Shown piece after piece: positions 23,551 to 42,187 of a DNA stretch of 51,958 bases. Position 1 is the first letter of the stretch, and each line of letters begins with the position of its first letter. The position numbers and the translations under genes were made by a program. The notes beneath the pieces were generated by a model. That model did no database searches, was not told the DNA's origin, and saw only the letters and a list, made by a program, of their open reading frames with translations. The stretch is taken from NCBI GenBank assembly GCA_964590205.1, contig CAZPVO010000005.1, positions 1-51,958 on the forward strand, given 5' to 3'. The DNA comes from an uncultured Candidatus Saccharibacteria bacterium (GTDB lineage Bacteria; Patescibacteriota; Saccharimonadia; Saccharimonadales; JAGQNJ01).

Positions 23551-23667
23551 TAAATTTCGTGCCTTTTTGCATGTGAGGTGGAAGAAGCACGGTTATACGG
23601 AGATAGCGTGGTGAGACGCTTATCTTCTCGTTGAATTAGAAATATATAACCTTCAAGGAGGGTACTA

Positions 23668-25157: not shown

Positions 25158-25331
25158 GGGTACCTCTATAAACAATTATAAGTATAAAACAAAATGAACT
25201 ATTCGTCAAAATTGTGTAATCACACGAACATCTTATTGACATAATATAAAAAATGTATCAGTATATAAGTAAGTTAAGAGGAAGAGGGTCCTATTGGGCC
25301 CCTTTTTATTTATAGGAGTGTAGGAGTTTTT

Positions 25332-26123: not shown

Positions 26124-26136
26124 TTTTAAACGGTAA

Positions 26137-26778: not shown

Positions 26779-26920
26779 AACTTTTAAGCTCGACCAAGTT
26801 CGTTGAGCAACATCACAAGCTCTTGTTTACTTAGCATTGAGCAATCGACCTTTTTCTGCAGTTAAATATATCTCAGCATAAGGCAAGATATATACAACTT
26901 ATAAACCACGAACTACGGTT

Positions 26921-27481: not shown

Positions 27482-27498
27482 GGTAATACCTCTAAAAA

Positions 27499-28083
27499 TT
27501 AGCGAGATTCGATCGAGACGGCGCTGATTTGCACGGCACCTTGCGTAACGACAACATCATTTACAATCGCTAAGCGCTGATTAGTAGCGGTTGGCGCATC
27601 TTTAATTGTTGTCCAGCTGGTGCAGACTTTATTGAATTGGTTATTCAAAGGAGTTGTTGGCACAAAATCATGAGGGTTGGTTTCGAGCCCGACAGGATAG
27701 CCAGGGACAATTGTGTACTCACCTGTCCAAAGCTGCAGTTTTGCTGTAACGCCAAATGGTGCTAAGTCGCGAGCCGTAACACAGTAGCGTTTTTCGAAGT
27801 TATCGCTAGAGAAATTCTTAGTTAGATTAAATTCAATATCTTTATCGTTACCATCATTGACGCTGTTGTTATAAATTGTCCAACCTTGGTTGTAAGACAT
27901 CCAGCCGGCTGGAGATTTGATATAGACGGGGCTTTTAATTAACTCATTGCTACCAGTTATCATCTGATAACTGTTCATATATTGGGTACGAGCTGATATT
28001 GGGCGATCAGTCGCCAAAACTGGTTGGGTCAGTACAACAACACTTAAAATTGATAAAACGACAGATGCAAAAAATCTTTTCAT
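27499..28083 (-). CDS. Secreted hypothetical protein
   Basis: Signal peptide MKRFFAS..PVLA. Start set at ATG 28083, 7 nt after TATAAT. Confidence 0.7.
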   Translation of the reverse strand: MKRFFASVVLSILSVVVLTQPVLATDRPISARTQYMNSYQMITGSNELIKSPVYIKSPAGWMSYNQGWTIYNNSVNDGNDKDIEFNLTKNFSSDNFEKRYCVTARDLAPFGVTAKLQLWTGEYTIVPGYPVGLETNPHDFVPTTPLNNQFNKVCTSWTTIKDAPTATNQRLAIVNDVVVTQGAVQISAVSIESR

Positions 28084-28123
28084 GAACTTAATTATAACAT
28101 AAGAATTAATGTAGGTCAATATC

Positions 28124-29638
28124 CTAGGTATAGCCGGTGAAGTAATCGGTTTTGATTTGTGCCTGATGAATACCCAGATCTTTTAGTATATCTCGCATTG
28201 CGACAACCATTTGGTGAGGTCCTGAGATGAAGTACAGGCAGTCTTCAAAGTCTGGTACTTCCTGTTTGATCATTTGAGTGGAGATTGAGCCTGTTTTGCC
28301 GTGCCAGTCCGCATCATGCTTATGACCGGTTACAGTGTATACAATTCTAGCATCAATCTTTTCCTGGGCTTGCTTAAAGACATCAGTGTACACAAATGCA
28401 TCAGGTGTTTTTTCGGAGTACAGCAGCGTAACATCGCGATTTTCATTAATATCAACTAAGTATTTCAGCATGCTGCGATATGGCGTTACACCGATACCCC
28501 CTGCGATAAATACCAAACGAGTTTGACTGTCTTTAGGTAATGTGAAATCGCCACCAACCTGGCCGGCGGCAATTGGCGTATCCTCATCCATATCGAGCAT
28601 GCGTTGTTTGTAGGTACTGCCATCCGGGTAAAACTTAACACCTACACGAACATTGTCTTCGGTTGGTGATGAAGCAAGTGTAAAATATCGGCGATTGCCG
28701 CGACTGTCGGCATGTTCATTTGGCAGCGTCCACTCCATGTACTGGCCAGGCTTGTAATTAAATTTTTGTCCGGGATCGAAAACAAAATCAATAACATCGG
28801 GTGACAGCATGATTTTCTCTTCAAGTTTTGGCATAATTTTAACTTTTGGACTAACAATATATGAAAAAATATTGCCAGCAACCAAAGCTAGCTCGGGGGT
28901 AGAATATAGACTCAAAATATGAACCTGCGGAGGAAACAAAACGCCAACCAGCCCTGAATACCACATTTGTTTGTCACGAGTCTCTGGTGAAGTAAGTGGT
29001 TCGGTCAGCATGACAAACGCTAAGAAAAAAAGAGATGAATGGAAAACTGCTTTCTGCAAATTATCGAGGACCGCGTGGTGATTTAATAGCGCGGCAAAAG
29101 CTGTCGAGGTTAGCGCGGTTGCAAAAAATGTCAGCACCATTGGTGTGCGCCGGATTTTTCGGACAATTAAAACCCCACCAATAATAACAAATGGTAACAT
29201 CGTGATGCTTCCAATCCACCAGCTAGCCGACTGGCCGGGGCCGAGCGCAGTCAGCGCCACTGCAATTGCCGCCGGGTTAAAAATATGTTTTTTGCGGATA
29301 GCTAAAATATACTTTGATGAAATCGCCAGTCCTGCCACAGCAGTTAAAAAGACAATGTCGTGTGGAACTTTCATTGGGTTAACGATCAAGGCCAAAATGA
29401 GCGCGGTAATGTAGGATGATTCAAAATTGACCGGCGTCTCAAAAACTCGCGCAAAGATATAATTTGTTGCCAAGCAAATCAGTGTCAAATAGCCGGCCGA
29501 AAATGACAAAGCCAAAAAGTTAAGCTGTAATTTTCCAGTAGCTGAAAAGGCTAACGCAATTCCGAGAAGCGCCAGCAAGTAATACAAAAGCAAACGATAC
29601 ATGGTGATTCTATCGAGCCAGGTATCAAGGAATTTCAC
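28124..29638 (-). CDS. RnfD/NqrB-like membrane domain fused to FNR-type FAD/NAD(P)-binding domain
   Basis: N-terminal multi-TM region with KHIFNPAA and MLTEPLTSP; C-terminal RYFTLASSP, FIAGGIGVTP and ISGP..MV. Confidence 0.85.
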   Translation of the reverse strand: MKFLDTWLDRITMYRLLLYYLLALLGIALAFSATGKLQLNFLALSFSAGYLTLICLATNYIFARVFETPVNFESSYITALILALIVNPMKVPHDIVFLTAVAGLAISSKYILAIRKKHIFNPAAIAVALTALGPGQSASWWIGSITMLPFVIIGGVLIVRKIRRTPMVLTFFATALTSTAFAALLNHHAVLDNLQKAVFHSSLFFLAFVMLTEPLTSPETRDKQMWYSGLVGVLFPPQVHILSLYSTPELALVAGNIFSYIVSPKVKIMPKLEEKIMLSPDVIDFVFDPGQKFNYKPGQYMEWTLPNEHADSRGNRRYFTLASSPTEDNVRVGVKFYPDGSTYKQRMLDMDEDTPIAAGQVGGDFTLPKDSQTRLVFIAGGIGVTPYRSMLKYLVDINENRDVTLLYSEKTPDAFVYTDVFKQAQEKIDARIVYTVTGHKHDADWHGKTGSISTQMIKQEVPDFEDCLYFISGPHQMVVAMRDILKDLGIHQAQIKTDYFTGYT

Positions 29639-30375
29639 GCAGCAACATACCTTTCAAAATTACTGGTTAAGGTTGCTACGGCGTTGTGATCAATCATATA
29701 ACCTTCGAAGCCTTTAAGTTTCTCGATAATATTTATGCCGTTTTTACCCATCGCAAAAGCCGCTGTCGCAAAGCGATCAGCGTTATAAATGTCGGGCCCA
29801 ATAACTGTTAAGGCCACAACTTCACTAGCTGGCTTATAGTTTTGATGCGGATTGTACACATGCGTCCCACGTATATATGTGCCTGACGTCGCCACACCCT
29901 TGTTTTTAACAGTCAGGGCTTTTATGGTTTGTGTTCTATCAAATGGATTGCGGATACCAATTCGCCAGTTTTTACCCTCAGTGCTGTGCCCACTTACTTG
30001 AATATCGCCACCACCGTCAATGTAAAAATTGTGAAAGCCTTTTAGCTTAAGAAGCTTAGCGGCATTCTGTATTGACCAACCTTTTACAAGTCCGGATGGA
30101 TCAGTGTATCCTTCGCGGGTTATATCAAAAAAACCATCAGTTTCTTGCCTAGTTTGCTCGCACAGCTGCAGAACTTTTTTCATTTCACTGCTCCACTTTG
30201 ACTTTGGTAAGCCATCATTAATGCGTGAAATTTCGCTGTCTTTTTTGTACGTGCTATAACGCGCATCAACCTTACGGAAATAATCAAAAACCTCGTTTAA
30301 ATCATCTGCAGTAGCCCCTTCATCAACAATTTCGATGGTAATTGGCATTCCCATAATTATTTCTGTTTGTTGCAT
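29635..30375 (-). CDS. apbE: FAD:protein FMN transferase
   Basis: Motifs MGMPITI, SEISRIN, DPSGLVKGW, GGDI, GVATSG and ADRFATA. Confidence 0.9.
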   Translation of the reverse strand: MQQTEIIMGMPITIEIVDEGATADDLNEVFDYFRKVDARYSTYKKDSEISRINDGLPKSKWSSEMKKVLQLCEQTRQETDGFFDITREGYTDPSGLVKGWSIQNAAKLLKLKGFHNFYIDGGGDIQVSGHSTEGKNWRIGIRNPFDRTQTIKALTVKNKGVATSGTYIRGTHVYNPHQNYKPASEVVALTVIGPDIYNADRFATAAFAMGKNGINIIEKLKGFEGYMIDHNAVATLTSNFERYVAA

Positions 30376-30378
30376 AAG

Positions 30379-30855
30379 CTAAGCTTGTGCCTGATTGAGC
30401 GCGCTGTTGAGGGATTCTATGAATGCATTACTGGTATCAGTCGCGCCCGTTACGATGTTGACGTGTGCACTTTGAGCACGGATCGCTTCTTGTTTTAATA
30501 TTGGCATCGCAACTGTGTTAATCCGAACAGAATTATCACGATCTTGAGGGTAATCAATAAACACAATATCTGTTATTTGGCCGTTTGAGATTGTTACCTT
30601 GACTTGAATATTGCCATAAAGCGCATCGGCAGAATCACCGGTATACGTGCCACTTTTATATTTTCCGGCCGTTTGAGTAGATGTACTGGAGTTGGAATTG
30701 CTAGACGGCTGACTTTGAGTAGTATCAGTTTGAGCCGTAGGTTGTGTTGCAGCTGGTGCTGGTGTAATACTGCCCGATGCTTCATGCCGCTGCTGAAACG
30801 TATAAGCGATGAAGGCTACGATAACAAAAGCTGAGAGTCCAATTTTTTTTAGCAT
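30379..30855 (-). CDS. Membrane-anchored FMN-binding (flavinylated) domain protein
   Basis: N-terminal anchor, Ser/Thr linker, YKSGTYTG, YGNIQVKVTI and flavinylation motif TGAT. Confidence 0.88.
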   Translation of the reverse strand: MLKKIGLSAFVIVAFIAYTFQQRHEASGSITPAPAATQPTAQTDTTQSQPSSNSNSSTSTQTAGKYKSGTYTGDSADALYGNIQVKVTISNGQITDIVFIDYPQDRDNSVRINTVAMPILKQEAIRAQSAHVNIVTGATDTSNAFIESLNSALNQAQA

Positions 30856-30986
30856 AATTCCTCATCTAATAGTAACGGTGTAATCATAAGCATACAACCT
30901 GAGAATAAGTTGAAAAAATTACATGATCACGCTGTACATAATTGCCTTTGTTGCTGAGTGCATAACTCTTGCGGTAAAATATAAAT

Positions 30987-31313
30987 ATGGCTGTAAAAAC
31001 AACCACCACTAAACAACAACTTTCAGAAGGCACAGTGCACAAGTTGCCGCCTGATCTTAAAAAGGCTTTGCTAGCTTCAAAGGAAGCTAATAAACTTTGG
31101 GAAGATATTACACCACTGGCTCGAAATGAATGGATCTGTTGGACGATTACAGTTAAGCAACAAAAAACACGCGACGAACATGTAGCGCGTGTGGTTGAAG
31201 AACTCAAAGACGGTATGCGACGTCCTTGTTGCTGGACCGGTTGTCTGCACCGAAAAGACATACCGCTCAGCCCCACCAAAAAGTGGTTAATCAGTAAGCA
31301 GGCCAAAAAATAG
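30987..31313 (+). CDS. YdeI/OmpD-associated family protein
   Basis: Motifs LPPDLKKAL, WEDITPLARNEWICW and KTRDEHV. Confidence 0.8.
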   Translation: MAVKTTTTKQQLSEGTVHKLPPDLKKALLASKEANKLWEDITPLARNEWICWTITVKQQKTRDEHVARVVEELKDGMRRPCCWTGCLHRKDIPLSPTKKWLISKQAKK

Positions 31314-31708
31314 TGGCTGAAAAACCTGCATCGGAGCAAATCGACGACATTATTAAAATGCACAGTAGCTGGAAAGCGAAACTGCTCACTCAAATACGTG
31401 CAGCTATAAAGGAAGCGGATCCAGAAGTTGTCGAAGAGATAAAGTGGCGCATGGCTACGCGCCCTGAAGGTCTAGCTGTTTGGTCTCATAATGGTATTGT
31501 GTGCCGAACGGAAATCTTCAATAACGACTTTAAACTCGTGTTCTCTAAAGGTGCTGTCATGAAAGACGCAAACAAGCTTTTTAATGCTCGCATGAAGAGC
31601 AAAACTGAACGTGCCATTGAGTATCGCGATGGCAGCACAGTTGATACAGCCAAGCTCAAAGAACTCGTAGTCGAAGCCGTCGAGCTCAACGTATCCAGCA
31701 AGAAGTAA
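31313..31708 (+). CDS. DUF1801 (YdhG-like) protein
   Basis: Motifs IRAAIKEADPEVVEEIKW, WSHNGIVC and KLVFSKGA. Confidence 0.82.
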   Translation: MAEKPASEQIDDIIKMHSSWKAKLLTQIRAAIKEADPEVVEEIKWRMATRPEGLAVWSHNGIVCRTEIFNNDFKLVFSKGAVMKDANKLFNARMKSKTERAIEYRDGSTVDTAKLKELVVEAVELNVSSKK

Positions 31709-31711
31709 AAC

Positions 31712-31742
31712 AAAAACCCGCCAGTTGGCGGGCTATGTTTTT
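31712..31742. terminator. Intrinsic terminator between convergent genes
   Basis: AAAAA-CCCGCC-AGTT-GGCGGG followed by a T-rich tail. Confidence 0.75.
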
Positions 31743-31751
31743 GCACGTGGC

Positions 31752-31910
31752 TTAGATTTTAGAAATAATCCAAGCGCACACTGCAAGACTGAGGAAGAAA
31801 AGCCCCAGCCCAACGGGTGAACCCCAGCTGAACCATGAACCCCACGAGCGCCAGTGTTTGTGTGACTTCTCGTACCAGTCCATTTGCTCCTCTTTTGACA
31901 TCTTTGTCAT
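31752..31910 (-). CDS. 52-aa Trp-rich single-TM small protein (not in ORF track)
   Basis: AAGGAG SD plus ATG; MTKMSKEEQMDWYEKSHKHWRSWGSWFSWGSPVGLGLFFLSLAVCAWIISKI. Confidence 0.75.
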   Translation of the reverse strand: MTKMSKEEQMDWYEKSHKHWRSWGSWFSWGSPVGLGLFFLSLAVCAWIISKI

Positions 31911-32025
31911 GAGACGACTCCTTATTAACTAATAATGAGTCTCGGATAATGTTTGCCAGTAAGCGGTTGTTCCTTCGAGACATTGGCCCGCCCAGTACCC
32001 TGGACTTATTAACCTATTTATTATA
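31911..32025 (-). promoter_or_regulatory. Extended -10 promoter plus ~100-nt structured leader occluding the SD
   Basis: TGaTATAAT with the hexamer at 32025-32020. Hairpin GACTC-ATTATTA-GT-TAATAAG-GAGTC covers the SD, and an upstream GTCTCG competes for it. Confidence 0.5.
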
Positions 32026-32072
32026 TCAACTAGGCTGCTGCAAGAATAGTTTGAAAAATGCTGACGGTTTGC

Positions 32073-32948
32073 TTAGATATGTATAAGTGGGCTGAGAGCG
32101 AGCGATACTGACAGAACTATCGTAATAACAAGAGAGAAAAAGAATATTTGTTTTGCCCATTTTTCGTATTCCTTTTGACGAAGACCTTTAACGGCCAGAA
32201 TGAACCACCAGCCTCCAACGAGCATCATGACGATAAAGTAAATAAGGCCCGTATCAGCTACAATCGATAATGATAATGAAGCCACTAAAAAGGCCGCAGT
32301 GAAAAATATAATCTGTTTTTTGGTTGATGCAACGCCACGCTTGACTGACATCACGGGGAGCTCCGCTGATTTATAATCTTTGCGTCGGTACAACGAAATT
32401 GCATAAAAATGTGGCATTTGCCAGCAGACCAAAATAATAAATAGCAACAGAGCCGTCGCATCAAACTGTCCAGTGACTGCTGTATATCCTGCGACCAAGG
32501 GCATGGCACCAGACACGCCTCCAATTAGCGTACTGTATTCGCTGTTACGTTTCGACCAACCATAAAAAACAATGTAATCAACAAAGCCAATCGCACCAAT
32601 CAAAACTGTTAACCAGTTTGTAGTAAGTGCGAGAATCGTAAATCCCAAAACACCTAATACAGCACCGTATGTGAGCGCTGAGATGACTGATATTTTACCA
32701 GTTACTAGCGCACGTTTTTCAGTACGGGCCATTTTTGCGTCAATACCACGATCTATGTAATTATTGAACACACAAGCCGAACCGATAATTAAACCAATAC
32801 CAAGCATTGTGCCAAGTAATAATTCAGCACTGACTTTCCAATGCGACGCAAACAATAAGCCAGCTAGTGCATACATCAGGTTACCATAAATAATACCTGG
32901 CTTAGCTAAGCGATAATAATCGCGCAGTTTACTTGTAGATGCTTTCAT
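32073..32948 (-). CDS. cyoE: Protoheme IX farnesyltransferase (heme O synthase)
   Basis: Motifs YYRLAKPGI, NNYIDRGIDAKMARTEKR and WQMPHFYAI. Confidence 0.95.
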   Translation of the reverse strand: MKASTSKLRDYYRLAKPGIIYGNLMYALAGLLFASHWKVSAELLLGTMLGIGLIIGSACVFNNYIDRGIDAKMARTEKRALVTGKISVISALTYGAVLGVLGFTILALTTNWLTVLIGAIGFVDYIVFYGWSKRNSEYSTLIGGVSGAMPLVAGYTAVTGQFDATALLLFIILVCWQMPHFYAISLYRRKDYKSAELPVMSVKRGVASTKKQIIFFTAAFLVASLSLSIVADTGLIYFIVMMLVGGWWFILAVKGLRQKEYEKWAKQIFFFSLVITIVLSVSLALSPLIHI

Positions 32949-33321
32949 CTTTTTGGATGTATTGGTTGGTTTGATCTGGTGATAGTTCTTGCCCGTGATG
33001 ATGCAAATAGTTTAGATTAATCATGATCCAGAGTGAGCCGACAATAACGGTTATTATAACCAGTGCTGTAAATAGCATCACAAATAGATTCAAACGAGGC
33101 TTTTTTTCGTGGTTAATGTGCAAGAAGAAAATCAACTGGACTACCATTTGAATGCCCGCAAGTCCCATGATCACAGCAATAAAAAGCGGTAGACTGGCGA
33201 CAACATTGTTAACTGAAATGGCATAGGCCGCAATTGTTAAAACTAACGATAAAATATAGCCAGCTATATACAGGTGTCTTTTATCACGAACTTCTTTACT
33301 GGTGTAATGCTCTCGGCTCAT
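32929..33321 (-). CDS. cyoD: Cytochrome o ubiquinol oxidase subunit IV
   Basis: Motifs YIAGYILSLVLT, QMVVQLIFFLH and GSLWIM. Confidence 0.92.
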   Translation of the reverse strand: MSREHYTSKEVRDKRHLYIAGYILSLVLTIAAYAISVNNVVASLPLFIAVIMGLAGIQMVVQLIFFLHINHEKKPRLNLFVMLFTALVIITVIVGSLWIMINLNYLHHHGQELSPDQTNQYIQKDESIYK

Positions 33322-33905
33322 AGCCTACCTGCCAATAAATAAACCATACTAAAAATGAAAATCCAGACAATATCGAGAAAGTGCCAGTACAACCCAAGGT
33401 ATGTGATTTTGCGTTGCATCGGCGTAGTAAAGCCTCGCTTTAGGGTGTAAATCATCAGCGTTGCCATCCAAAAGAGCCCGATAAAAATGTGCAAACCATG
33501 TGTTCCAACTAACACAAAGAATGCTGATAAGTATGCACTGCTGCCTATGGTGTGTCCTGCCTGAATTAAATGGCTAAACTCTTTCATCTCCAGTGCAAAG
33601 AATGATACGCCGAGCAAAAAGGTAATGCTAAACCAGGCCAGCATCTGGCCTTTACGCTTCTGCAGCGCACCAAGTGTTGCGAGTCCACAAGTAAAACTAC
33701 TTGTGAGCAATAGAATTGTTTCAGTCAGTGCGAGCGGTAAATTAAATAACTCGCCGCCAGATGGGCCACCTGCTGTGCTTTCATGAAGTACGGCAAATAC
33801 AGCAAAAAGGATGGCAAACATTAGCATGTCGGTCATTAAATAGACCCAGAAGCCAAAAAAGCCTCGGTCGCGCGCCTGCTCTTCGTGGTCAATCGTCTCA
33901 TTCAT
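33318..33905 (-). CDS. cyoC: Cytochrome o ubiquinol oxidase subunit III
   Basis: Motifs FGFWVYLMTD, LLLTSSFTCG, GTHGLH and YWHFLDIVW. Start set at ATG 33905 (ATGA overlap with cyoB). Confidence 0.94.
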   Translation of the reverse strand: MNETIDHEEQARDRGFFGFWVYLMTDMLMFAILFAVFAVLHESTAGGPSGGELFNLPLALTETILLLTSSFTCGLATLGALQKRKGQMLAWFSITFLLGVSFFALEMKEFSHLIQAGHTIGSSAYLSAFFVLVGTHGLHIFIGLFWMATLMIYTLKRGFTTPMQRKITYLGLYWHFLDIVWIFIFSMVYLLAGRL

Positions 33906-36001
33906 GTGTCTAGTCGCCACTTTCGCCACCCTCTAGTCTTTATAAAGTCCAACGCCCATCTTAGAGTCACTTTTACAAAATCGCGCAGGCCAATATCTTC
34001 ATTATTGTCTGGATTGGCATGCTTCTGAACATGCGCAAACTTCTCTGCTCGCTCATGCTCAAGTTGTTTAACTTTCTCGGCGCTAAGTGTATATTCGGTA
34101 TTTTCCTTGAAAGTTTGAGCAATCGTGCAGGCAACAATACCGATTAGTCCGACAATGACTAACCATATAATGTGCCAAACAAATCCAAACCCGAACAAAA
34201 ATGCAAAACCGGCGATGTAGATTCCGGCTGATATATTCTTGGGCATACGAATATCTTCGTACACGGGCTTTGGCTGTTTGTGTTGCTTCATTTCCCAAAA
34301 AGCATCTCGGGTGGTAACTTCTGGAATTCTTGTGAAGTTATAAAACGGAGCAGGAGACGGTACTGACCATTCTAGTGTTCGTCCATCCCAAGGATCACCG
34401 GTCGTGTCGAGCAACTGTCTCTTTTGAACAAAACTGGCAATGATTTGAATAATCTGAAAAATGACACCAGCCATTATAAGTACTCCACCAAGTGTTGCAA
34501 CGATAAAGAATGGTCGCCAGCTGGTGTTTGTGTAATGATCAAGCCGCCTGGTTGCACCCATGAATCCTAAAATGTAGAGCGGTCCAAAGGCCATCCAAAA
34601 ACCAATTAACCAGCACCAAAACGCGTAGCGGCCGAGGCGTTCGTTAAGCCTAAAACCCGTCATCTTTGGGAACCAGTATGAAATTCCAGCAAAGACACCC
34701 CACAGTACGCCGCCAATAACCATGGTGTGAAAATGTGCAACTAAAAATAGACTGTTATGCAACTGAAAATCTGATGCCGGTTCAGCCAGCATAACACCAG
34801 TCATACCACCAATTGCAAAAGTGCCGGCAAACCCCAAAAACCAAAGCAGCGGAGTTTTAAATCGAATGCGACCTTTGTACATCGTCGCAACCCAGTTGAG
34901 CACGAGCACAGTTGTCGGAATAGCAATAATCATAGTCATAAGCCCAAAGAATGCGTTCACATCAGCGCCAGCGCCCATGGTAAAGAAGTGATGCAGCCAT
35001 ACCGAAAGTGCAAATGTCGAAACACCAATCATACCAATAACGGCTGACCAATAGCTGGCGATTGGTTTACGGCTAAACGCTGAGACAACTTCTGAATAAG
35101 CACCGAAAGCCGGCAAAATCAAAATATACACTTCTGGGTGTCCCCACATCCAAATCAAGTTGGTATACATCATCGCATTACCACCAGCAGTAGTAGTAAA
35201 GAAATGTGCACCTAAATAACGATCAAAAAATAACAGAAACAAGGTTGCTGTTAAGAGTGGAAAAACAGTCACAGCCATGACCATGCTGCATAATGAGCCC
35301 CAGGTGAACAGCGGCATTTTTCGCAGCGTCATGCCGGGTGCACGCATTTTAAGAATAGTGACAATAAAGTTAATAGCGCCAAGTGTCGTGCCAATACCAG
35401 AAATCTGCAGCGACCATATTAAATAGTCTACCCCCACACCAGGACTAAATTGTGTACTTGCTAGTGGTGCAATCGCCAGCCAGCCAGTCGCAGCGTACTT
35501 GCCGCCAACAATGAAAAACGTGTTGACCATGACGACGCCAGCAACATACAGCCAAAAGCCGAGTGTATTTAAAAACGGCGAAGCAAGATCACGAGCACCA
35601 ATTTGCAGCGGAACAATGTAGTTGATAAGTCCAAACACAAACCCCATCGCCACGAAGAAAACCATAATGTTACCGTGCGCAGTAAAGAGTTGTTGAAAGT
35701 GATCAGCTGAGAGATAACCGTGTGAAGCACCGACTGACAGTGATTGTTGCAGCCAAATCATAATTGCCTCCAGCACCCCACGCAGCAGCATAAAGCCGGC
35801 TACCAAAAAGTACATGATGCCAATTCGCTTTGGATCAACTGAGGTTAGCCACTCTTTCCATAGCCATTTCCAGCGCTTGGTGTAAGTAAGGAGTATCGCT
35901 ACACCAATAAACAAACCAATATAGAACGCCGCGCCACCAAGTGTAAACCACTCGTGCGGCAAAGCTTCCCAATTTAATCTACCGATCAGAAATTCTCTCA
36001 T
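33902..36001 (-). CDS. cyoB: Cytochrome o ubiquinol oxidase subunit I
   Basis: Metal ligands FTAHG, WGHPEVY, WLHHF and AHFH; D-channel ARDL and N residues present; quinol site R/E/H/Q. Confidence 0.96.
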   Translation of the reverse strand: MREFLIGRLNWEALPHEWFTLGGAAFYIGLFIGVAILLTYTKRWKWLWKEWLTSVDPKRIGIMYFLVAGFMLLRGVLEAIMIWLQQSLSVGASHGYLSADHFQQLFTAHGNIMVFFVAMGFVFGLINYIVPLQIGARDLASPFLNTLGFWLYVAGVVMVNTFFIVGGKYAATGWLAIAPLASTQFSPGVGVDYLIWSLQISGIGTTLGAINFIVTILKMRAPGMTLRKMPLFTWGSLCSMVMAVTVFPLLTATLFLLFFDRYLGAHFFTTTAGGNAMMYTNLIWMWGHPEVYILILPAFGAYSEVVSAFSRKPIASYWSAVIGMIGVSTFALSVWLHHFFTMGAGADVNAFFGLMTMIIAIPTTVLVLNWVATMYKGRIRFKTPLLWFLGFAGTFAIGGMTGVMLAEPASDFQLHNSLFLVAHFHTMVIGGVLWGVFAGISYWFPKMTGFRLNERLGRYAFWCWLIGFWMAFGPLYILGFMGATRRLDHYTNTSWRPFFIVATLGGVLIMAGVIFQIIQIIASFVQKRQLLDTTGDPWDGRTLEWSVPSPAPFYNFTRIPEVTTRDAFWEMKQHKQPKPVYEDIRMPKNISAGIYIAGFAFLFGFGFVWHIIWLVIVGLIGIVACTIAQTFKENTEYTLSAEKVKQLEHERAEKFAHVQKHANPDNNEDIGLRDFVKVTLRWALDFIKTRGWRKWRLDT

Positions 36002-36906
36002 TGTTCTCCCCTCACATTTGCGTCAGGCGGCGGATTATACTTGGTCAAAATGGTCTTATATAAGTTTGTGTCAGTTTTAGAATAAAGTATAACGGGATTA
36101 TTTTCACTTGGAACAAGAAGTTTTTGGTACTGCTCGGCAGTTAGTTGATTTTGTGATGCGCGAGCTGTCTTAACCCATTCGTCAAAGTCGGCTGCTGACG
36201 CGGCGTGAGCTGTAAATTTCATGCCGGCAAAACCAGGCCCATTAATCTCAGCTGCTTGGCCCTGGTAGTCGCCCGGAGCATCGGCCATTAAGTTTAGTTC
36301 AGTTTGGTGACCGGTCATGGCATACAATTGACCACCAAGATGTGGAATCCAAAACGAGTTCATTGGCGCCTCATCGGCTGTTAATTCAAATTGCACAGGT
36401 ACATTAACCGGCAGCTGAACGTAATTCACTGTTGCAATATTCTGCTCAGGATATATAAACAACCACTTCCACCTAAGTGCAACTACTCGAATGGTAAGTG
36501 GCTTGCTTTGGGCTTCAATTTTTTTTCGAGGATCTAGATTAAATGTAGCCGGCAGAACCACAGAGGCCAGGATTATCACAATAATTGTCGGCGCGACCCA
36601 CAAACTCATCCCGAACAACTTGCCGTGTGGTTTTGTTGAGCGATTACGGACCTTTGAGTTTGATTCGCGGTATTTCCAGGCAAAAAAGTAAAGCATACCC
36701 AAAACCGGAATAGCAAAGGCCAGCATTACGGCTACTGAAAACTCCATCAAATGAGCTTGGTTTTGAGCAATCTGCCCTTTCGGATTAAACAAAACGATGT
36801 CATTGCCATACATTAATCCGGCAAACAAAAAAGCTAATCCTGAAAGTCCCAATAAAACAAGTTTAGGCAGTGATGTCTGCTTTGACTTGTTTTTTTGTTT
36901 TGCCAT
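35998..36906 (-). CDS. cyoA: Cytochrome o ubiquinol oxidase subunit II
   Basis: Motifs FNPKGQIA, WKWLFIYPEQ, MNSFWIPHLGGQLYAM and NGPGFAGMKF; no CuA ligands. Confidence 0.94.
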   Translation of the reverse strand: MAKQKNKSKQTSLPKLVLLGLSGLAFLFAGLMYGNDIVLFNPKGQIAQNQAHLMEFSVAVMLAFAIPVLGMLYFFAWKYRESNSKVRNRSTKPHGKLFGMSLWVAPTIIVIILASVVLPATFNLDPRKKIEAQSKPLTIRVVALRWKWLFIYPEQNIATVNYVQLPVNVPVQFELTADEAPMNSFWIPHLGGQLYAMTGHQTELNLMADAPGDYQGQAAEINGPGFAGMKFTAHAASAADFDEWVKTARASQNQLTAEQYQKLLVPSENNPVILYSKTDTNLYKTILTKYNPPPDANVRGEQ

Positions 36907-37005
36907 TAACTAGACCCTACCAAAGTTAAAAATACTCATAAGCGCTATAACTACTATACCACGCTGATGGTGGTGTGTCTCCTGTGCGGGGGCCGCTATG
37001 AATAA

Positions 37006-37308
37006 CTACTTTTCTAAGCTGTCAGTCGATAATGCTCTTCGATACACGCTTCTTTGATAGTAGTGTGCAGCTAGTATGATTGTTATCAGTGATAGTGAGC
37101 TAAGACAGGCTTGGCCGATTGGAGAGTGAGACATAAACGAAAGAATAAAACCACTCAATGTTGCGGCCACTGTTCCCTGCCACATTCTTTTTACTCGATT
37201 CGAGACTGCTGTAAAGTCGTGTTTTCGAGTTCCCCAAATTACTCCCATTGCAAAAGCTAATGACATGACTGCCAGCAATACATGGGTAACAAGAATAAGC
37301 GTGATCAT
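37006..37308 (-). CDS. Small three-TM membrane protein upstream of cyoA
   Basis: Three hydrophobic segments; co-oriented with the cyo operon. Confidence 0.65.
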   Translation of the reverse strand: MITLILVTHVLLAVMSLAFAMGVIWGTRKHDFTAVSNRVKRMWQGTVAATLSGFILSFMSHSPIGQACLSSLSLITIILAAHYYQRSVYRRALSTDSLEK

Positions 37309-37391
37309 TATTTATATTTTAGCAAACTAGCACTTCATTCAAAAAACTCATACTTGGCATGTGCGACTTTGCGCCTAGAATCAACATTGTA

Positions 37392-37637
37392 TTAGCTTCT
37401 TGATGGTGATTTTCTAAGCTTAAGGCGTAAATTAGAAATATAGTCACTCACCTTAACTTGCGGGTAGGCCTTTAGGTATGAAAGATGCGCGTCAACAAAC
37501 GAAATTTTGTTGCCCGGCCACATCTCACTGTTTGCTCTATAAGCGGTTAAGGTCGTCAGTGATGAATCTTTCTGCATCTGCAGCAAAATACTTCGAGCTT
37601 CATCAAGCTCAGAGTCTTTTCTGATAACTTTCATCAT
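37392..37637 (-). CDS. Conserved-looking hypothetical protein
   Basis: Starts 2 nt after the RRM gene stop, suggesting an operon. Confidence 0.65.
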   Translation of the reverse strand: MMKVIRKDSELDEARSILLQMQKDSSLTTLTAYRANSEMWPGNKISFVDAHLSYLKAYPQVKVSDYISNLRLKLRKSPSRS

Positions 37638-37639
37638 AA

Positions 37640-37927
37640 CTACCTTCTGTAACCGCCAAAGCTACCTTGTTTACGGTCGTTTTGAGGACGGGCCTGGTTA
37701 ACAACAATAGAACGACCATCGATTTCCTTGTTATTCAACTCTTTAATAGCATTTTGGCCATCTTTTAACTCTTCCATTTCTACAAATCCAAAACCTTTGG
37801 ATTGAGAAGTGTCTCTATCTTTTATGATGACAGCACTTAAAACTTTACCGTGTTCTTCAAACAGAGTTTTTAGCTGGTCATCTGTAGTGTTGTATGACAG
37901 ACCACCAACATATAATTTAATTGGCAT
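37640..37927 (-). CDS. RRM-domain RNA-binding protein
   Basis: RNP2 LYVGGL, RNP1 KGFGFVEM and a Gly/Arg tail. Confidence 0.95.
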   Translation of the reverse strand: MPIKLYVGGLSYNTTDDQLKTLFEEHGKVLSAVIIKDRDTSQSKGFGFVEMEELKDGQNAIKELNNKEIDGRSIVVNQARPQNDRKQGSFGGYRR

Positions 37928-38059
37928 AAAAAATCCTTTCTTAACTTGATATCATAGGCATTTAGTATGACTAGCCGCTAGGATATCGAGCCCAAGAAAG
38001 GCAAAGTATTGCAAAGGTAAGCTAGAGTAACCACTCGCTTAAATATATTTTACCACAAG

Positions 38060-38100
38060 ATGCGCTGAAGTGCTAACGCTCATGCTTGGTTCTCTGGATG
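38060..38100 (-). repeat. Junction repeat copy 7 (distal, degenerate)
   Basis: Minus strand: GAGAACCA-AGCAT-GAGCGT-TAGCACTTCAGCGCA. Confidence 0.55.
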
Positions 38101-38116
38101 GAGTGGATGCCGGTAC

Positions 38117-38713
38117 TCAAGTGCCAGCAGTCACAGCAACAATAACAACCACTAGTACACAAAGAAGAATGATACCTGCAATTGTGCCAACAATAATTAA
38201 ACCGAAATGATAGTTTACTATTTTAGGGGCAGTTGTATTAACTCGAAAGCCATTTTGCTGCAGGGTTGTCAGCCACTGAGTCATAACTGCCAGGCTGACA
38301 ACTGGATCTGCCTTAGGGATCTTCATATCTTCTACTGTGTAACCAGTAATACCCGCGGCTGTTGATGCTAGATCAAAACTTTGAGCTATATCGACGGCAG
38401 TGCCAACAGCTTGTTCGGCAGAAATATCAGCCTCCACGGGCTTAGCATCACTATCAATTAATGTAAATGTAGCCTGTTCATTTTGGCTCGTGAACTGAAG
38501 TGTTCCCGGCGTGTGAGAATCATATTCAACATTCAAAACTTCGTCGTGTTTCTTGCGCCACTTTTCAGTGCCATTGGGTGTGCGATATGCAAGTGAGCCA
38601 TCTTTAAAAAGTACCAGGTTGCCATGTGCACTTTGTTTTGGTGATAACATATTCGCTTGAGCAGTGAGAAGTATAGACCCGGTATCTGCTACATTTGAAG
38701 GACGGCTATCCAT
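38117..38713 (-). CDS. Cassette gene: hypothetical protein with C-terminal TM
   Basis: Start set at ATG 38713 (38719 possible); TATAAT lies 6 nt upstream. Confidence 0.65.
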   Translation of the reverse strand: MDSRPSNVADTGSILLTAQANMLSPKQSAHGNLVLFKDGSLAYRTPNGTEKWRKKHDEVLNVEYDSHTPGTLQFTSQNEQATFTLIDSDAKPVEADISAEQAVGTAVDIAQSFDLASTAAGITGYTVEDMKIPKADPVVSLAVMTQWLTTLQQNGFRVNTTAPKIVNYHFGLIIVGTIAGIILLCVLVVVIVAVTAGT

Positions 38714-38731
38714 ACGCATATTATAACAAGC

Positions 38732-38768
38732 AAAAAAAGCACCTCTTCCAACGTGCTTACCTTCTTGC
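38732..38768 (-). repeat. Junction repeat copy 6
   Basis: AAGCAC-GTTGGAAGAG-GTGCTT-TTTTT; the stop codon of the upstream hydrolase lies inside it. Confidence 0.75.
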
Positions 38769-39434
38769 CATGCGGACAAGTTTGCGTACTCTTACTAAGT
38801 TTCTAATAACTGTTTGACTGTGGTTAAGTTTATGATGAGAAATGAGTTTTACTTGTGCACCAGCAGCCTTAAGTGTCTCGATACATTCCAATGCGGCCTT
38901 AAAACCAGCGGTTTTATCATTTTTGCTTGCAACTGCAATATAGTTTTTCCCACTCAGATTCTTGAGTTTCGGATGTTGCAGCTCGTGCCAAGCTTCTGCT
39001 AATGACTCTTTGGTAAAGCCATTGACTTCAAACTTGTGTCTTTCAGACTCAAAACTCCAGATTGCTCTAGTTATGTCACCACCAGCAATCACAACACCCC
39101 AAGAAAGCTCAGGAATATCATCAAGCGAGCCATATAAAACGAAACCACCTAAGCTTGCACCGACAAAACCAAATTCTTTGTATCCCTTTTTTTGTAACGT
39201 GCGGATAGTATCTTGAATATACTTCTCAGATTGCTCAATGGCCTTAAAGAGTAGTTTCGGATCACCTGTGTCAAAGATTGCCAATGTGTAACCGAGAGCA
39301 ATTACTGAGTAATTGTCACGCAGCAATGCACGAATAGGTAGACGCAACTTGCTGACTGAGATGCCATATGGCCCAAGCAAAAAGATGGCTCTTGTAGCTT
39401 TCGGCTTTAAGTATTCTCTAGTTTCAACTAGCAT
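38757..39434 (-). CDS. Cassette gene: alpha/beta hydrolase fold protein
   Basis: GASLG elbow, ASKNDK acid and C-terminal His. Start set at ATG 39434, 7 nt after TACACT. Confidence 0.72.
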   Translation of the reverse strand: MLVETREYLKPKATRAIFLLGPYGISVSKLRLPIRALLRDNYSVIALGYTLAIFDTGDPKLLFKAIEQSEKYIQDTIRTLQKKGYKEFGFVGASLGGFVLYGSLDDIPELSWGVVIAGGDITRAIWSFESERHKFEVNGFTKESLAEAWHELQHPKLKNLSGKNYIAVASKNDKTAGFKAALECIETLKAAGAQVKLISHHKLNHSQTVIRNLVRVRKLVRMARR

Positions 39435-39449
39435 ATGGCCTAGTGTAAC

Positions 39450-39509
39450 AAAAAACACTTCGTGATGAAGTGTTTATGCTTGCTTCTACTAAGGTGGTAG
39501 ATGTTAAAA
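39450..39509 (-). repeat. Junction repeat copy 5
   Basis: TTTTAACATCTACCACCT..GAAGCA-AGCAT-AAACACTTC-ATCAC-GAAGTGTTT-TTT. Confidence 0.75.
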
Positions 39510-40376
39510 CTATGATTCAATGGGTGGTTGTGTAGGCTGGTTTGGTTGTGGTGAACTAATGTCTTTGTTTTTGCCTTTTATGCGCATCAAAGTATTAAAG
39601 TACAGGCCAGTGAATCCGATAGTTGTGTGGTGCTCGCCAAAAACCACTAGCCATAAATTACTTGGTCGCCGGCTAAAGAGCTTTATGCGCAGCGGATAAG
39701 CTGTCGCAGGGCCAGTGCTGGTAGACTGTGTCAACAGCCAGATTCTTGAAGGCTCGTGTCCATTTGTTGGAGTACCAACTATCTGATAATAGGAATCTTT
39801 GCGCCCTTTCGGACTGTTCGGATGTTTTGAGTTTAAATATCCTTTGTACTTAAGTTGGTACGGCATGTCTTTAGGACTTAGACCTGTCACGATAAAGAAA
39901 ATTGTTAGTAATAGCCGTAAACAAAAGAATATTCCATAGACAAATATTATGGTTAGGACAATTGTCAGTATCGAAAATACCACATTACTATTTGTATATG
40001 CTTCCGCTGGCAAACGGGCTGTATCACCGAAAGGTGCAATAATAACCTGTACATTATCACCAACATTAGGTTGATGAGGCTGATCGACACACATTTCCAG
40101 TGTTACCTGTCTATCATTAGCTGTTCCTTTATATCTGATCCGATTGCAGGTGTTAGGTGAATTATTGGTATAACCGTGACCACCAGCTAGGAAATGACTT
40201 TCGGTGATATGCATGCTTGCCGTTTGGGCCAGACCAAAAGTACGAGCGTAGTCTGGCTCGGTCAGTGGACTGGCAGCAAACAAAATGACAAAACAGACAA
40301 ATAAGACAGCTATCGGAATTATGAAAAAAGTAACAATAAAACCCTCAGACTTAAATATTTGACTTTTGTTGAACAT
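39510..40376 (-). CDS. Cassette gene: membrane protein with an extracytoplasmic beta-domain between two TM segments
   Basis: TM-domain-TM layout; TATACT lies 7 nt before ATG. Confidence 0.65.
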   Translation of the reverse strand: MFNKSQIFKSEGFIVTFFIIPIAVLFVCFVILFAASPLTEPDYARTFGLAQTASMHITESHFLAGGHGYTNNSPNTCNRIRYKGTANDRQVTLEMCVDQPHQPNVGDNVQVIIAPFGDTARLPAEAYTNSNVVFSILTIVLTIIFVYGIFFCLRLLLTIFFIVTGLSPKDMPYQLKYKGYLNSKHPNSPKGRKDSYYQIVGTPTNGHEPSRIWLLTQSTSTGPATAYPLRIKLFSRRPSNLWLVVFGEHHTTIGFTGLYFNTLMRIKGKNKDISSPQPNQPTQPPIES

Positions 40377-40402
40377 TAATCCTAGTATAATTTACGCACA
40401 AT

Positions 40403-40461
40403 AAAAAAGCACTTCTTTCACAGTGCTTGTGCTTGGGTCTGAGTGACGGTGGAAGTTAGAA
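40403..40461 (-). repeat. Junction repeat copy 4
   Basis: TTCTAACTTCCACCGT-CACTCAGACCCA-AGCAC-AAGCACT-GTGAAAGA-AGTGCTT-TTTT. Confidence 0.85.
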
Positions 40462-40989
40462 CTACTTTAGATCTTTTAGCACAGAACCTAATGTCTGATT
40501 ATTAATATAGGTCGTTTCTAAAAATTGAGCGTAAAACTTTTTCCCATACTCGGCTGCTCCTTCAAGACAAACTTGCAGGTATCGTCCTTGGGCGATGGAA
40601 CCAAAATCGTAATTACCGTTGTTCTTATTTGCTGAAAAGACTTTGCATTCTCCTAGAGGCTTGCCACTTTCGAAGTTATATGCGGTTGTGGATACTAAAG
40701 CGTACTCTTGTTCACGTCGTCTGAGTGCTTTGAAATACGTCTCATCAACACTAAAGACAATGCCATTAACATGAGATTTACCCTCAGCCTGCTTAACATC
40801 AACTGCACAAAACGGTATGCCACGAATATCACGATTCGTTTCTGTAAAGCCTTCGGGATCCCATAAACTAAAGTCTCGGACAAAACCTTCAATGTAGGCG
40901 GGTCGTATATCGCTCACATCGGGCACAGTTGCCCGCAATGATTCCTTAGACATTAGTGAGCCGTAACCGAAAACAAGTAGCTTGCTCAT
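40462..40989 (-). CDS. Cassette gene: gamma-glutamylcyclotransferase (GGCT/ChaC-like) family
   Basis: Motifs LVFGYGSLM, NGIVF and LRRREQEY. Start set at ATG 40989. Confidence 0.8.
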   Translation of the reverse strand: MSKLLVFGYGSLMSKESLRATVPDVSDIRPAYIEGFVRDFSLWDPEGFTETNRDIRGIPFCAVDVKQAEGKSHVNGIVFSVDETYFKALRRREQEYALVSTTAYNFESGKPLGECKVFSANKNNGNYDFGSIAQGRYLQVCLEGAAEYGKKFYAQFLETTYINNQTLGSVLKDLK

Positions 40990-41009
40990 TGACATATGAT
41001 AGCAAAAAT

Positions 41010-41066
41010 AAAAGCACCTCATTCAAAGTGCTTATGCATGGCTCTTTGTAACGGTGGAAGTTAGAA
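41010..41066 (-). repeat. Junction repeat copy 3
   Basis: TTCTAACTTCCACCGT-TACAAAGAGCCA-TGCAT-AAGCAC-TTTGAATGAG-GTGCTT-TT; two mismatches to copy 1 over ~35 nt. Confidence 0.9.
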
Positions 41067-41453
41067 TCACTCTAGTTGGGTTTGGATATTGGCGAGGCGA
41101 TCAAACAGGGATTGTTTTTCACTCTCATCCAACCAATGGGTAGACGTTACAGGACGCGACGGGATACTCCCTTCTGTTTTGGCAAACTCCCAAACACGTT
41201 CGTCCTCGTGAAGTTCGTATATATGCCAGTCATTACCTTCGCCTATGTGGATTCTTCCGATAATGTCTCCAGAACCCCCAATAGTTCCTCCTTCACTTGC
41301 CAGTGACATGTGAACTACGGTTCCATCAGGCAAACGTCGGTTAAAGACGCCTCGTTCGTTGGATGTACGGCTAAATCGACTCTCAGGATTTGTGAGTGAG
41401 ATTTCACCCAATAATTCCCTTGTCTGCTCAAAAGGCGTATCTGTTCGGCTCAT
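41067..41453 (-). CDS. Cassette gene: hypothetical protein
   Basis: 128-aa ORF bounded by junction repeats. Confidence 0.65.
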   Translation of the reverse strand: MSRTDTPFEQTRELLGEISLTNPESRFSRTSNERGVFNRRLPDGTVVHMSLASEGGTIGGSGDIIGRIHIGEGNDWHIYELHEDERVWEFAKTEGSIPSRPVTSTHWLDESEKQSLFDRLANIQTQLE

Positions 41454-41457
41454 AAAA

Positions 41458-41520
41458 ACAAAAATACCACTTTTTTGGCATTTTGCATATTGCTTATGCT
41501 TGGCTCTCTGTGGCCATCGA
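41458..41520 (-). repeat. Junction repeat copy 2
   Basis: 16 nt (GAGCCAAGCATAAGCA, 41506-41491) are identical to copy 1, followed by an alternative hairpin ATGCCA-AAAAAG-TGGTAT and a T-tract. Confidence 0.8.
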
Positions 41521-41522
41521 AT

Positions 41523-41870
41523 TTAGCTAGCCTCGTCAGAAAAAGGTACATACTCTGTAATTATTGCAGGTGTTTCTTGATAGGCTTGAGTAAGGCCCGT
41601 GTTGTCCAGGGTGGCAAAAGGCTGCTCCCCTACGAAAAAACTGTATGTACTTGGTGTGCTTTCATTACGAACCACACACTTTTGAGCAACTGATAAGTCG
41701 CCATCTGCTAGTCGGGCTTCATCTTCAGTAGAGAAGTCCCATAGAAGTATAAGCCTACCAACAGCCAGGCCAGGGACGTCTGGGTGAGTAACTGTAAATA
41801 TACCTTCTGACGCGGTTGGGCTTATCTCTACCTCTTGCCCGTGCTTACCTTCATAGTGTCTCCACAACAT
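41523..41870 (-). CDS. Cassette gene: hypothetical protein
   Basis: 115-aa ORF with its own promoter TTGCAC-16-TATAAT, 8 nt before ATG. Confidence 0.65.
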   Translation of the reverse strand: MLWRHYEGKHGQEVEISPTASEGIFTVTHPDVPGLAVGRLILLWDFSTEDEARLADGDLSVAQKCVVRNESTPSTYSFFVGEQPFATLDNTGLTQAYQETPAIITEYVPFSDEAS

Positions 41871-41917
41871 GGTGGCTAATTATAAAACTTTTCAGCGATT
41901 GTGCAAGAACCTAAAAC

Positions 41918-41966
41918 AAAAAGCACCTCTTTCAAAGTGCTTATGCTTGGCTCCGGGGAGAGGATA
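41918..41966 (-). repeat. Junction repeat copy 1 = tRNA-Asn-like 3' end (att site) plus terminator
   Basis: ATCCTCT-CCCCGGA-G-CCA reads as T-stem, acceptor strand, discriminator G and CCA (implied 5' TCCGGGG, Asn-type). It is followed by AGCAT-AAGCAC-TTTGAAAGAG-GTGCTT-TT. Confidence 0.85.
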
Positions 41967-42187
41967 ATGCCGTCCCTCTGGGACGAACGCACCTCCGACT
42001 ATTGCCTGCTTCGCAGTCAAGTCGGAGAATCGAAGCCTTGCACGAAAAATGAGCCTGCCCAGAACCTCTTTGGGTTCTGATCAGACTCATGGCTCACACT
42101 AGCTGACGCATTGCGAACTGCCAGTGCGGAATATGACGAGCATCAAGTGCAAAATATTCAGTCTATACTGCAGTACAATGCGTTAGC

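Follow-up and report, generated by a model that had tools for sequence, protein, structure and literature searches.

Loss of the K-channel lysine and entry glutamate in predicted bo3-type quinol oxidases of Saccharimonadales

A stretch of 51,958 nucleotides from an uncultured Candidatus Saccharibacteria bacterium (assembly GCA_964590205.1, contig CAZPVO010000005.1; the whole stretch is hereafter called the window) carries a cyoABCDE operon whose predicted bo3-type quinol oxidase lacks both residues characteristic of the canonical K-channel of A-family heme-copper oxidases, i.e. the lysine of helix VIII in subunit I (CyoB; K362 in the Escherichia coli numbering used here unless 'query' is stated) and the entry glutamate of subunit II (CyoA; E89, or E101 in Rhodobacter sphaeroides). 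The same losses recur in a large group of related enzymes held under strong purifying selection, in which the lysine-free (K-less) enzymes form one clade and a set of further substitutions accompanies the change at K362. The source organism, a tiny symbiont of the Saccharimonadia, is represented by a 0.9 Mb genome that is 95% complete.

K-channel and active-site residues of the window enzyme

CyoA and CyoB were aligned to the E. coli chains by phmmer (HMMER) searches against all PDB chains. Query residues 317-420 of CyoB aligned without gaps to residues 313-416 of E. coli CyoB (1fft_A), with helix VIII reading IAIPTTVLVLNW over E. coli IAIPTGVKIFNW, and the alignment of CyoA to 1fft_B placed HGKLFGMSLWVAP over E. 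coli HSNKVEAVVWTVP. The two genes and the positions concerned are as follows:

33902..36001, minus strand: cyoB, subunit I, 699 amino acids (aa); phmmer match to 1fft_A, E = 1.1e-238
35998..36906, minus strand: cyoA, quinol oxidase subunit II, 302 aa; phmmer match to 1fft_B, E = 1.8e-64
34904..34906, minus strand: codon CTC of CyoB Leu366, equivalent to the K-channel lysine K362 in the ungapped alignment
34910-34912, minus strand: CyoB Thr364, equivalent to G360 of helix VIII in the ungapped alignment
36610..36612, minus strand: codon GGG of CyoA Gly99, equivalent to the K-channel entry residue E89 in the alignment to 1fft_B

The initial annotation had read Leu at K362 and Thr at G360, and had found CyoA devoid of the entry glutamate; the alignments returned the same codon for the lysine position and Gly99 for E89. 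Among the 120 nearest CyoB homologues the K362 column held Leu in 118, Val in one and Ile in one, and the E89 column of the 120 nearest CyoA contained no Glu (V67, A24, T7, I4, D4, N4 and others). For a wider comparison 126 CyoB sequences of this kind (L-type) were set against 76 canonical ones (K-type). Lys was present in 76/76 K-type sequences, as opposed to Leu in 124, Val in one and Ile in one of the L-type, and Glu occupied the E89 column in 65/65 K-type and 0/120 L-type CyoA. As for the two findings that the initial annotation would have taken as contrary to it, a Lys and a Glu at the equivalent positions or a change unique to this assembly, the alignment and the 120 nearest homologues revealed neither.

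The ligands, the His-Tyr pair, E286 and the D-channel were all recovered by alignment in the intact state first described, as was the exchange of D75 for Glu. The window CyoB has the six His ligands of the low-spin heme, the high-spin heme and CuB (H106, H421, H419, H284, H333 and H334), invariant in 120-126 clade members, and the active-site Tyr on helix VI, which is Tyr in 126/126; the H284-Y288 pair (query H288 and Y292) is read from the residues and its cross-link is predicted only. The D-channel residues D135, N124, N142 and E286 are kept and are invariant in the clade, T201 and T211 are also kept, and R481 and R482 are present, forming with D135 and E286 a set of invariant proton-pumping elements. 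Within the K-path, T359, T352, S299 and Y288 are still found in the window CyoB. The quinol-site residues R71, D75, H98 and Q101 correspond to query R74, E78, H101 and Q104, and the D75 column (35768-35770 in the window) holds Asp in 113 and Glu in 13 of the 126 clade members.

Retention of the active-site Tyr is a mark of O2 reductases in the superfamily, and its loss together with altered CuB/FeB ligands marks the heme-copper nitric oxide reductases (PMC11214002). The window CyoB keeps this Tyr and the three CuB His ligands, has no extra Glu ligand, and thus does not bear the marks of a nitric oxide reductase. In the tree described below it is nested in proteobacterial bo3 enzymes, inside a clade (100/99) from the Candidate Phyla Radiation (CPR). 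With the NCBIfam equivalog models, CyoA (TIGR01433, 249.2 bits) and CyoB (TIGR02843, 941.9 bits) fell short of their cut-offs of 266.2 and 1020.35, respectively, and CyoC, CyoD and CyoE passed theirs. As judged from its sequence, the enzyme would be a bo3-type A-family oxidase in every defining feature except the K-channel residues and the equivalog scores of CyoA and CyoB, and quinol:O2 activity with proton pumping is predicted.

We judge it negligibly probable that these observations stem from a faulty assembly, a pseudogene or misaligned residues; nothing was found in favour of such an artefact, and it is refuted by the alignment, the homologue columns and the signs of selection. The CyoB alignment is ungapped with an E value of 1e-238, the five cyo genes are open and overlap one another, and over 120 independent assemblies share these residues. 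The 120 nearest CyoB, taken from NCBI, JGI, ENA and Logan assemblies in a collection of 5.8 billion proteins, are 71-80% identical to that of the window and are invariant at every ligand and D-channel residue. Pairwise comparison of five L-type genes by the NG86 method gave nonsynonymous divergence (dN) of 0.14-0.20 with saturated synonymous divergence (dS), and their ratio omega was 0.035-0.05 in the two pairs where it was defined; as dS is saturated for most pairs, omega is an upper bound only. The dN/dS ratio, a measure named in the initial annotation, thus indicates purifying selection with omega of at most about 0.05 where defined. Across genomes Leu362 is encoded by TTG, CTC, CTG, TTA and CTA, and since five different codons specify the one residue, the amino acid itself must be held. 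The K-less enzyme is under strong purifying selection.

Distribution, origin and order of the losses

A sample of 401 genomes of the order Saccharimonadales included 191 with cyoB, whose identity to the window CyoB was bimodal. Twenty loci were read individually: all 13 with an identity of at least 66% were L-type and had no Glu at E89, and all seven with at most 63% carried the motif IPTGVK, with the CyoA Glu present wherever CyoA was recovered. Typed by identity threshold, as verified in these 20 loci, 73 of the 401 genomes have the L-type enzyme and about 118 the canonical K362/E89 K-type, which puts the K-less share of sampled Saccharimonadales cyoB at about 38%. The loss of K362 and E89 is hence not general in Saccharimonadia, a possibility entertained in the initial annotation, and the canonical type is the commoner one. 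Because both types occur in the same order, the loss is a trait of the enzyme lineage and not of the Saccharimonadia as organisms. In a phylum-wide sample, seven of seven cyoB from other CPR classes were K-less (Gln in three, Leu in three and Ile in one), and the K-less clade extends beyond Saccharimonadia to these classes and to one metagenome-assembled genome (MAG) of the Parachlamydiales. Two fragmentary bins (G277, contigs C1/C60; G101, contigs C37/C62) hold an L-type and a K-type cyoB on separate contigs, and may represent either true co-occurrence of both enzymes or mixed bins.

Examination of 80 named loci from GTDB species genomes for K362 and E89 found the two residues together in 73/73 K-type loci. 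In a careful tree (IQ-TREE, LG+C20 PMSF, 51 rows) the CPR bo3 clade (100/99) was placed within proteobacterial bo3 beside Legionella-type enzymes, in agreement with the earlier conclusion that CPR cyo is nearest to Legionellales-type enzymes and was acquired from Proteobacteria (Chiriac 2022 on freshwater CPR, PMC9166423; Starr 2018, PMC6031116). Inside this clade were K-type enzymes of Parcubacteria and Kaiserbacteria, a K-type Saccharimonadales clade (100/94) and a K-less clade (100/100), and within the last of these two Gln362 enzymes, from a Paceibacterota MAG and the Parachlamydiales MAG, branched before the Leu362 Saccharimonadales group (100/96). A wider, quick tree to which the seven cyoB of other CPR classes were added likewise gathered 21/21 K-less rows into one clade (approximate likelihood-ratio test 100), nested in the CPR bo3 clade next to the K-type Saccharimonadales enzymes. 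As all K-less enzymes form one clade, K362 was lost once; the codon path AAR to CAR to CTR takes a single base change per step.

Position E89 behaved differently from K362. In nine K-less enzymes outside the Saccharimonadales L-type (five with Gln, three with Leu and one with Ile at position 362) it was Glu in three, Gln in two, Ser in two and Ala in two, and Glu was kept in two of the five Gln-type enzymes. In the L-type it is never Glu (Gly, Val, Ala, Asp, Ser and others) and varies among hydrophobic residues. Since E89 varies in this way within the K-less enzymes, it was freed from constraint after the lysine was lost and decayed repeatedly, as expected if K362 and E89 serve one pathway that is no longer used canonically. 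The initial annotation had spoken of a paired loss rather than random decay. The absence of decay is borne out by the purifying selection, the synonymous Leu codons and the clade-wide occurrence; the pairing is not, as K362 went first and E89 later.

The Parachlamydiales MAG (CAVPVT010000024.1) encodes its Gln362 enzyme, a member of the K-less CPR clade, as an 856-aa fusion of subunits I and III. The presence of the enzyme in this Chlamydiota MAG suggests that the K-less oxidase may have been transferred between unrelated symbiont lineages.

Co-occurring substitutions and the proton supply

Comparison of the 126 L-type with the 76 K-type CyoB revealed changes in four regions of the subunit:

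35753..35755, minus strand: codon TGG of CyoB Trp83, equivalent to R80; the change goes with every K362 loss
35009..35059, minus strand: portion of helix VII opposite helix VIII on the other side of the K-channel, with F311A, G312S, M316A, A319G, x322G, I323V and S327A
34895..34912, minus strand: helix VIII neighbours Thr364 (G360) and Asn369 (N365), both positions relaxed in the L-type clade
35378..35581, minus strand: D-channel region with the clade-fixed changes F138S, S145G and T204G; D135, N124, N142, T201, T211 and E286 are kept

R80 is Arg in 76/76 K-type enzymes and Trp in 125/126 L-type and all Gln-type enzymes, and the 21/21 K-less rows of the tree have Trp or, once, Leu. Although no residue is linked more tightly to the lysine loss, its location is close to the quinol site, where helix I ends on the periplasmic side, well away from the K-channel, and our search of the literature found no role for it. 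Two other changes, D100Q and V108N, adjoin quinol-site residues and the heme b ligand.

In helix VII and the loop that precedes it the near-universal FGY (311-313) has become ASY in the L-type (F311A in 98%, G312S in 94%), A319G is found in 100% and Gly at position 322 in 99%, and I323V and S327A are also seen. M316 is replaced by Asn in 62%, Gln in 10% and Ala in 23%. Support for this face of helix VII being opposite K362 comes from PMC10341450; our spatial statements use the numbering shared with R. sphaeroides and distances chosen in one molecular dynamics paper. On this basis the helix VII changes would form the wall facing the lost lysine. F311, M/L316 and A319 are all retained in the Gln-type enzymes, which places the remodelling of helix VII at the Gln to Leu step. 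On helix VIII, G360 is kept in 76/76 and N365 in 71/76 K-type enzymes, and in the L-type their entropy is 1.43 and 1.55 bits, respectively, against 0 and 0.40 bits in the K-type, even though the L-type is the less diverse set overall (0.47 vs 0.89 bits). In the D-channel two hydroxyl residues have become Gly (S145G in 100%, S/T204G in 91%), one of them at T204, a recognised polar residue of this channel (PMC13022660), and F138S is situated at the channel mouth.

A search of the whole genome (95% complete) found no cytochrome bd, no ferrochelatase and no C-terminal domain of type 2 NADH dehydrogenase (NDH-2), and likewise no catalase, AhpC/TSA, Redoxin-family peroxiredoxin, rubrerythrin or Fe/Mn superoxide dismutase. 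The cyo enzyme is the only terminal oxidase found, and the only recognised enzyme handling O2 or reactive oxygen species among those searched for. Its cyoE is the only UbiA-family gene (PF01040, a single match). As the genome has no quinone and heme synthesis, the enzyme must, on the predicted gene content, depend on scavenged heme and quinone, a use that has been proposed for other Saccharibacteria (PMC6031116).

Strong selection, an active site unchanged from that of O2 reductases and service as the sole oxidase in roughly one in five genomes of the order lead us to favour, with moderate confidence, a quinol oxidase that still works, reduces O2 and receives its protons without a lysine. The residue losses, their single origin and order, the purifying selection and the accompanying substitutions are read from the sequences; the continued use of O2 and the choice of proton route are inferences. 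The enzymes belong to a distinct and ancient K-less subfamily of bo3-type (A-family) quinol oxidases across CPR/Patescibacteria, in which K362 was replaced once, by Gln in the early branches and later by Leu or Ile, and the entry Glu of subunit II, no longer held, decayed several times. Scavenged quinol would be oxidised and O2 reduced at an ordinary heme o3/CuB/His-Tyr centre, the heme having been converted to heme O by CyoE, and protons would probably still be pumped via the intact D-channel. The protons of the reductive phase, normally delivered by the K-pathway, would have to arrive without the help of a lysine. They may pass through a hydrated groove that follows the altered helix VII wall (A311, S312, N/Q/A316, G319, G322) up to T359 and Y288, much as in the K-analogue channels of B-family enzymes, which have no lysine, or they may come through the D-channel only. 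A rewired proton path, one of the options raised in the initial annotation, would be consistent with the remodelling of helix VII and of the D-channel.

Several observations weigh against this interpretation. According to PMC7601700, replacements of K362 abolish O2 turnover in A-family oxidases, and Leu carries no proton. The clade-wide comparison turned up no new or relocated Lys, Glu, Asp or His that is conserved in the L-type and could act as a substitute. E89, G360, N365 and position 316 are evolutionarily labile, which looks more like abandonment than a rebuilt channel, and the window CyoB itself has Ala at 316, neither Asn nor Gln. The G319/G322 pair could seal the interface between helices VII and VIII as well as hydrate it. 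Positions 316 and 365 do covary (N/T, Q/G, A/N), with an amide at one of the two in 107/126 sequences; among 12 phylogenetically independent pairs, 4.7 changed in opposite directions and 0.1 in the same direction (sign test, median p 0.06), and this covariation is suggestive only.

If the K-pathway had been lost with nothing to replace it, the product would be a slow O2 scavenger, whose K-mutant-like rate might be enough for an epibiont that keeps O2 low or disposes of a trickle of reducing equivalents. The relaxed lower K-path, with at least 18-21 changes at position 316 and at position 365 and a variable hydrophobic residue at E89, speaks for such an enzyme, as do the missing charged substitute, a flux dependent on scavenged cofactors when quinone and heme are not synthesised, and the fact that O2 scavenging has already been proposed for cyo of Saccharibacteria (PMC6031116). 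However, a near-dead five-gene enzyme would be hard to keep at an omega of at most about 0.05 in genomes of 0.7-1.0 Mb, and its spread across many families and several CPR classes needs long retention. New residues fixed at 98-100% (A311, G319, G322, G145, W80) point to new constraints, and the proton-pumping elements named above are invariant. We therefore regard an uncompensated scavenger as rather unlikely.

The behaviour of engineered mutants raises a further alternative. According to PMC7601700, which cites Vygodina 1998, K362M in R. sphaeroides abolished oxidase activity and left peroxidase activity untouched, K362 replacements starve the reductive phase of protons, and the peroxidase phase is fed only by the D-channel. 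This agrees with the statement in the initial annotation that O2 turnover stops on K362 substitution and peroxide turnover persists. A quinol peroxidase, or an enzyme using some other oxidant, would perform the peroxidase half of the cycle only, reducing H2O2 with quinol and pumping through the D-channel. The intact D-channel and E286, and the peroxide- and superoxide-removing enzymes that were searched for and not found in this 95%-complete genome, are compatible with this. Across the 401 genomes, however, the share with peroxiredoxin genes is 56% for the L-type, 58% for the K-type or untyped enzyme and 60% where cyoB is absent, and these equal frequencies mean that the L-type enzyme is no stand-in for peroxiredoxins. 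Moreover, K-type and L-type operons fill the same role, usually as the sole heme-copper oxidase and with the same gene order, and the active site is unchanged from O2 reductases. We know of no natural heme-copper peroxidase, and consider this alternative quite improbable. Its most far-reaching form, in which the K-less CPR enzymes are proton-pumping quinol:H2O2 oxidoreductases by which these ultrasmall epibionts detoxify and conserve energy from peroxide (e.g. that released by their hosts) and do not respire O2, is in our view very doubtful.

Locus context and comparison with known systems

The five overlapping open genes of the operon occupy 32073-36906 on the minus strand in the complete cyoABCDE order. 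NCBIfam profiles name the proteins CyoA, CyoB, CyoC, CyoD and heme O synthase, and the same order, including the heme O synthase gene, is found in the loci of relatives. The remaining features are:

33318..33929, minus strand: cyoC, subunit III; TIGR02842 at 228.3 bits, over the cut-off
32929..33321, minus strand: cyoD, subunit IV, 130 aa; TIGR02847 at 84.7 bits, over the cut-off
32073..32948, minus strand: cyoE, heme O synthase; NF003348 at 334.7 bits
28124..30375, minus strand: ApbE and a 504-aa fusion of an RnfD/NqrB-like membrane domain with a NAD-binding reductase; Pfam PF02424, PF03116 and PF00175

CyoA contains no Cys and so has no CuA site. Its former cupredoxin domain bears clade-specific changes in the L-type (M189H in 117/120, T191N in 114/120 and S211N in 117/120), and the conserved W82 before the second transmembrane helix is lost. 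At other L-type loci CyoD carries a C-terminal extracytoplasmic domain of about 103 aa with Cys and His motifs, which K-type CyoD does not have and which the window CyoD also lacks. As the latter ends precisely at the linker, this genome appears to have lost the domain. A 100-aa membrane open reading frame near cyoA (37006-37308) gave no family match and has no homologue in other L-type loci, and was thereby rejected as a conserved accessory gene. The ApbE/fusion pair is encoded on the strand of the cyo genes, 1.7 kb downstream of cyoE, and is a candidate for the NAD(P)H-side electron input of the oxidase; in Saccharibacteria bacterium 47-87 a homologous pair was observed next to a cyo operon of the K-type.

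cyoB was absent from 23/23 other genomes of the family to which the window belongs, and also from a complete genome of the same genus. As the DNA of that genome is too diverged for synteny to be read, protein-level synteny was used. Over window positions 24400-42000, homologues of window genes 23650-24405 and 30978-31310 are adjacent there (contig C1, 178-180 kb). The matching site lacks the window segments 24.4-30.9 kb and 31.3 kb onward, and neither the cyo operon nor the flavinylation module nor the WhiB-like gene is present. Because these segments are absent, the operon would sit in a variable region of the lineage, and the block beside the tRNA-Asn cassette array looks like a variable or acquired island. 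The flavinylation operon and cyoE are separated by a non-coding stretch of 236 nt (31798-32033) that matches C1:209128-209367 of the same-genus genome at 80% identity; the rest of the 20-kb query barely aligns at the DNA level.

K362 and the K-pathway are textbook requirements of A-family oxidases, and a large, naturally selected lineage does without K362 and the entry Glu. The window CyoB is about 58% identical over 650 residues to that of E. coli bo3, the best-studied quinol oxidase, so that every difference can be transplanted and tested, and it becomes testable what the K-pathway lysine is needed for and what can replace it. Claims of O2 respiration in Saccharibacteria and Patescibacteria rest on cyo annotation (PMC6031116, PMC9166423, PMC12577380). 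This annotation conceals two enzyme types, and the aerobic respiration assumed for CPR may use a non-textbook enzyme.

With E. coli bo3 the window enzyme shares the operon order and the five proteins, the heme and CuB ligands, the His-Tyr pair, the D-channel, R481/R482, the quinol-site residues and the absence of CuA. It differs in K362L, E89(II)G, G360T, R80W, FGY(311-313) to ASY, M/L316A, A319G, S145G, T204G and F368A, and in the sub-threshold equivalog scores of CyoA and CyoB. Engineered K-channel mutants (R. sphaeroides K362M, Paracoccus denitrificans K354M and E. coli K362 variants) have a non-protonatable residue at the same position and an intact D-channel, and are described as O2-inactive (PMC7601700). 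They are single changes in a wild-type frame, whereas the L-type CyoB is ancient and fixed, has about 20 clade-specific substitutions and is held by selection.

B-family oxidases such as Thermus thermophilus ba3 have a Lys-free K-analogue channel of Ser, Thr, Tyr and water. They have no D-channel and carry a polar residue in place of the lysine; the L-type CyoB, in contrast, keeps the D-channel, has Leu at this position and belongs with A-family bo3. Their one channel has been described as similar to the K-channel (PMC11214002).

Previous reports on CPR cyo, including that on Ca. Teamsevenus rhizospherense, described cyoABCDE in Saccharibacteria without heme or quinone synthesis and treated the enzyme as a normal proton-pumping oxidase (Starr 2018, PMC6031116; Chiriac 2022, PMC9166423). 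K-type and K-less lineages were not separated in either. In the searchable CPR literature the only related remark found was that of Starr et al. on a 'discrepancy in the functional residues', which was ascribed to evolutionary distance (PMC6031116). The present analysis contributes the separation of K- and L-type enzymes inside Saccharimonadales, the finding that the lysine was lost only once, the succession in which the residues disappeared and the substitutions that changed alongside them.

Natural absence of the lysine has precedents. Seven independent losses of the K-channel lysine were inferred in archaeal family A (Degli Esposti 2021, PMC8239418), and cultured Pseudomonas/Ectopseudomonas (Ectopseudomonas mendocina and relatives) have an 843-aa fusion of subunits I and III with Gln362. 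Lys was missing from the K362 column in 50 of 146 diverse A-family representatives (Q19, L10, I5, V4 and others), the 146 being those covering the column among the 150 best 50%-cluster representatives of A-family subunit I, a level of clustering that collapses the whole bo3 family and with it the K/L boundary. Lys-less A-family oxidases thus seem widespread and unstudied, and our literature search found no characterised natural example. The archaeal and Ectopseudomonas enzymes are of the cytochrome c oxidase type and come from unrelated lineages, whereas the L-type enzyme is a predicted quinol oxidase similar enough to E. coli bo3 to be compared with it directly, residue by residue.

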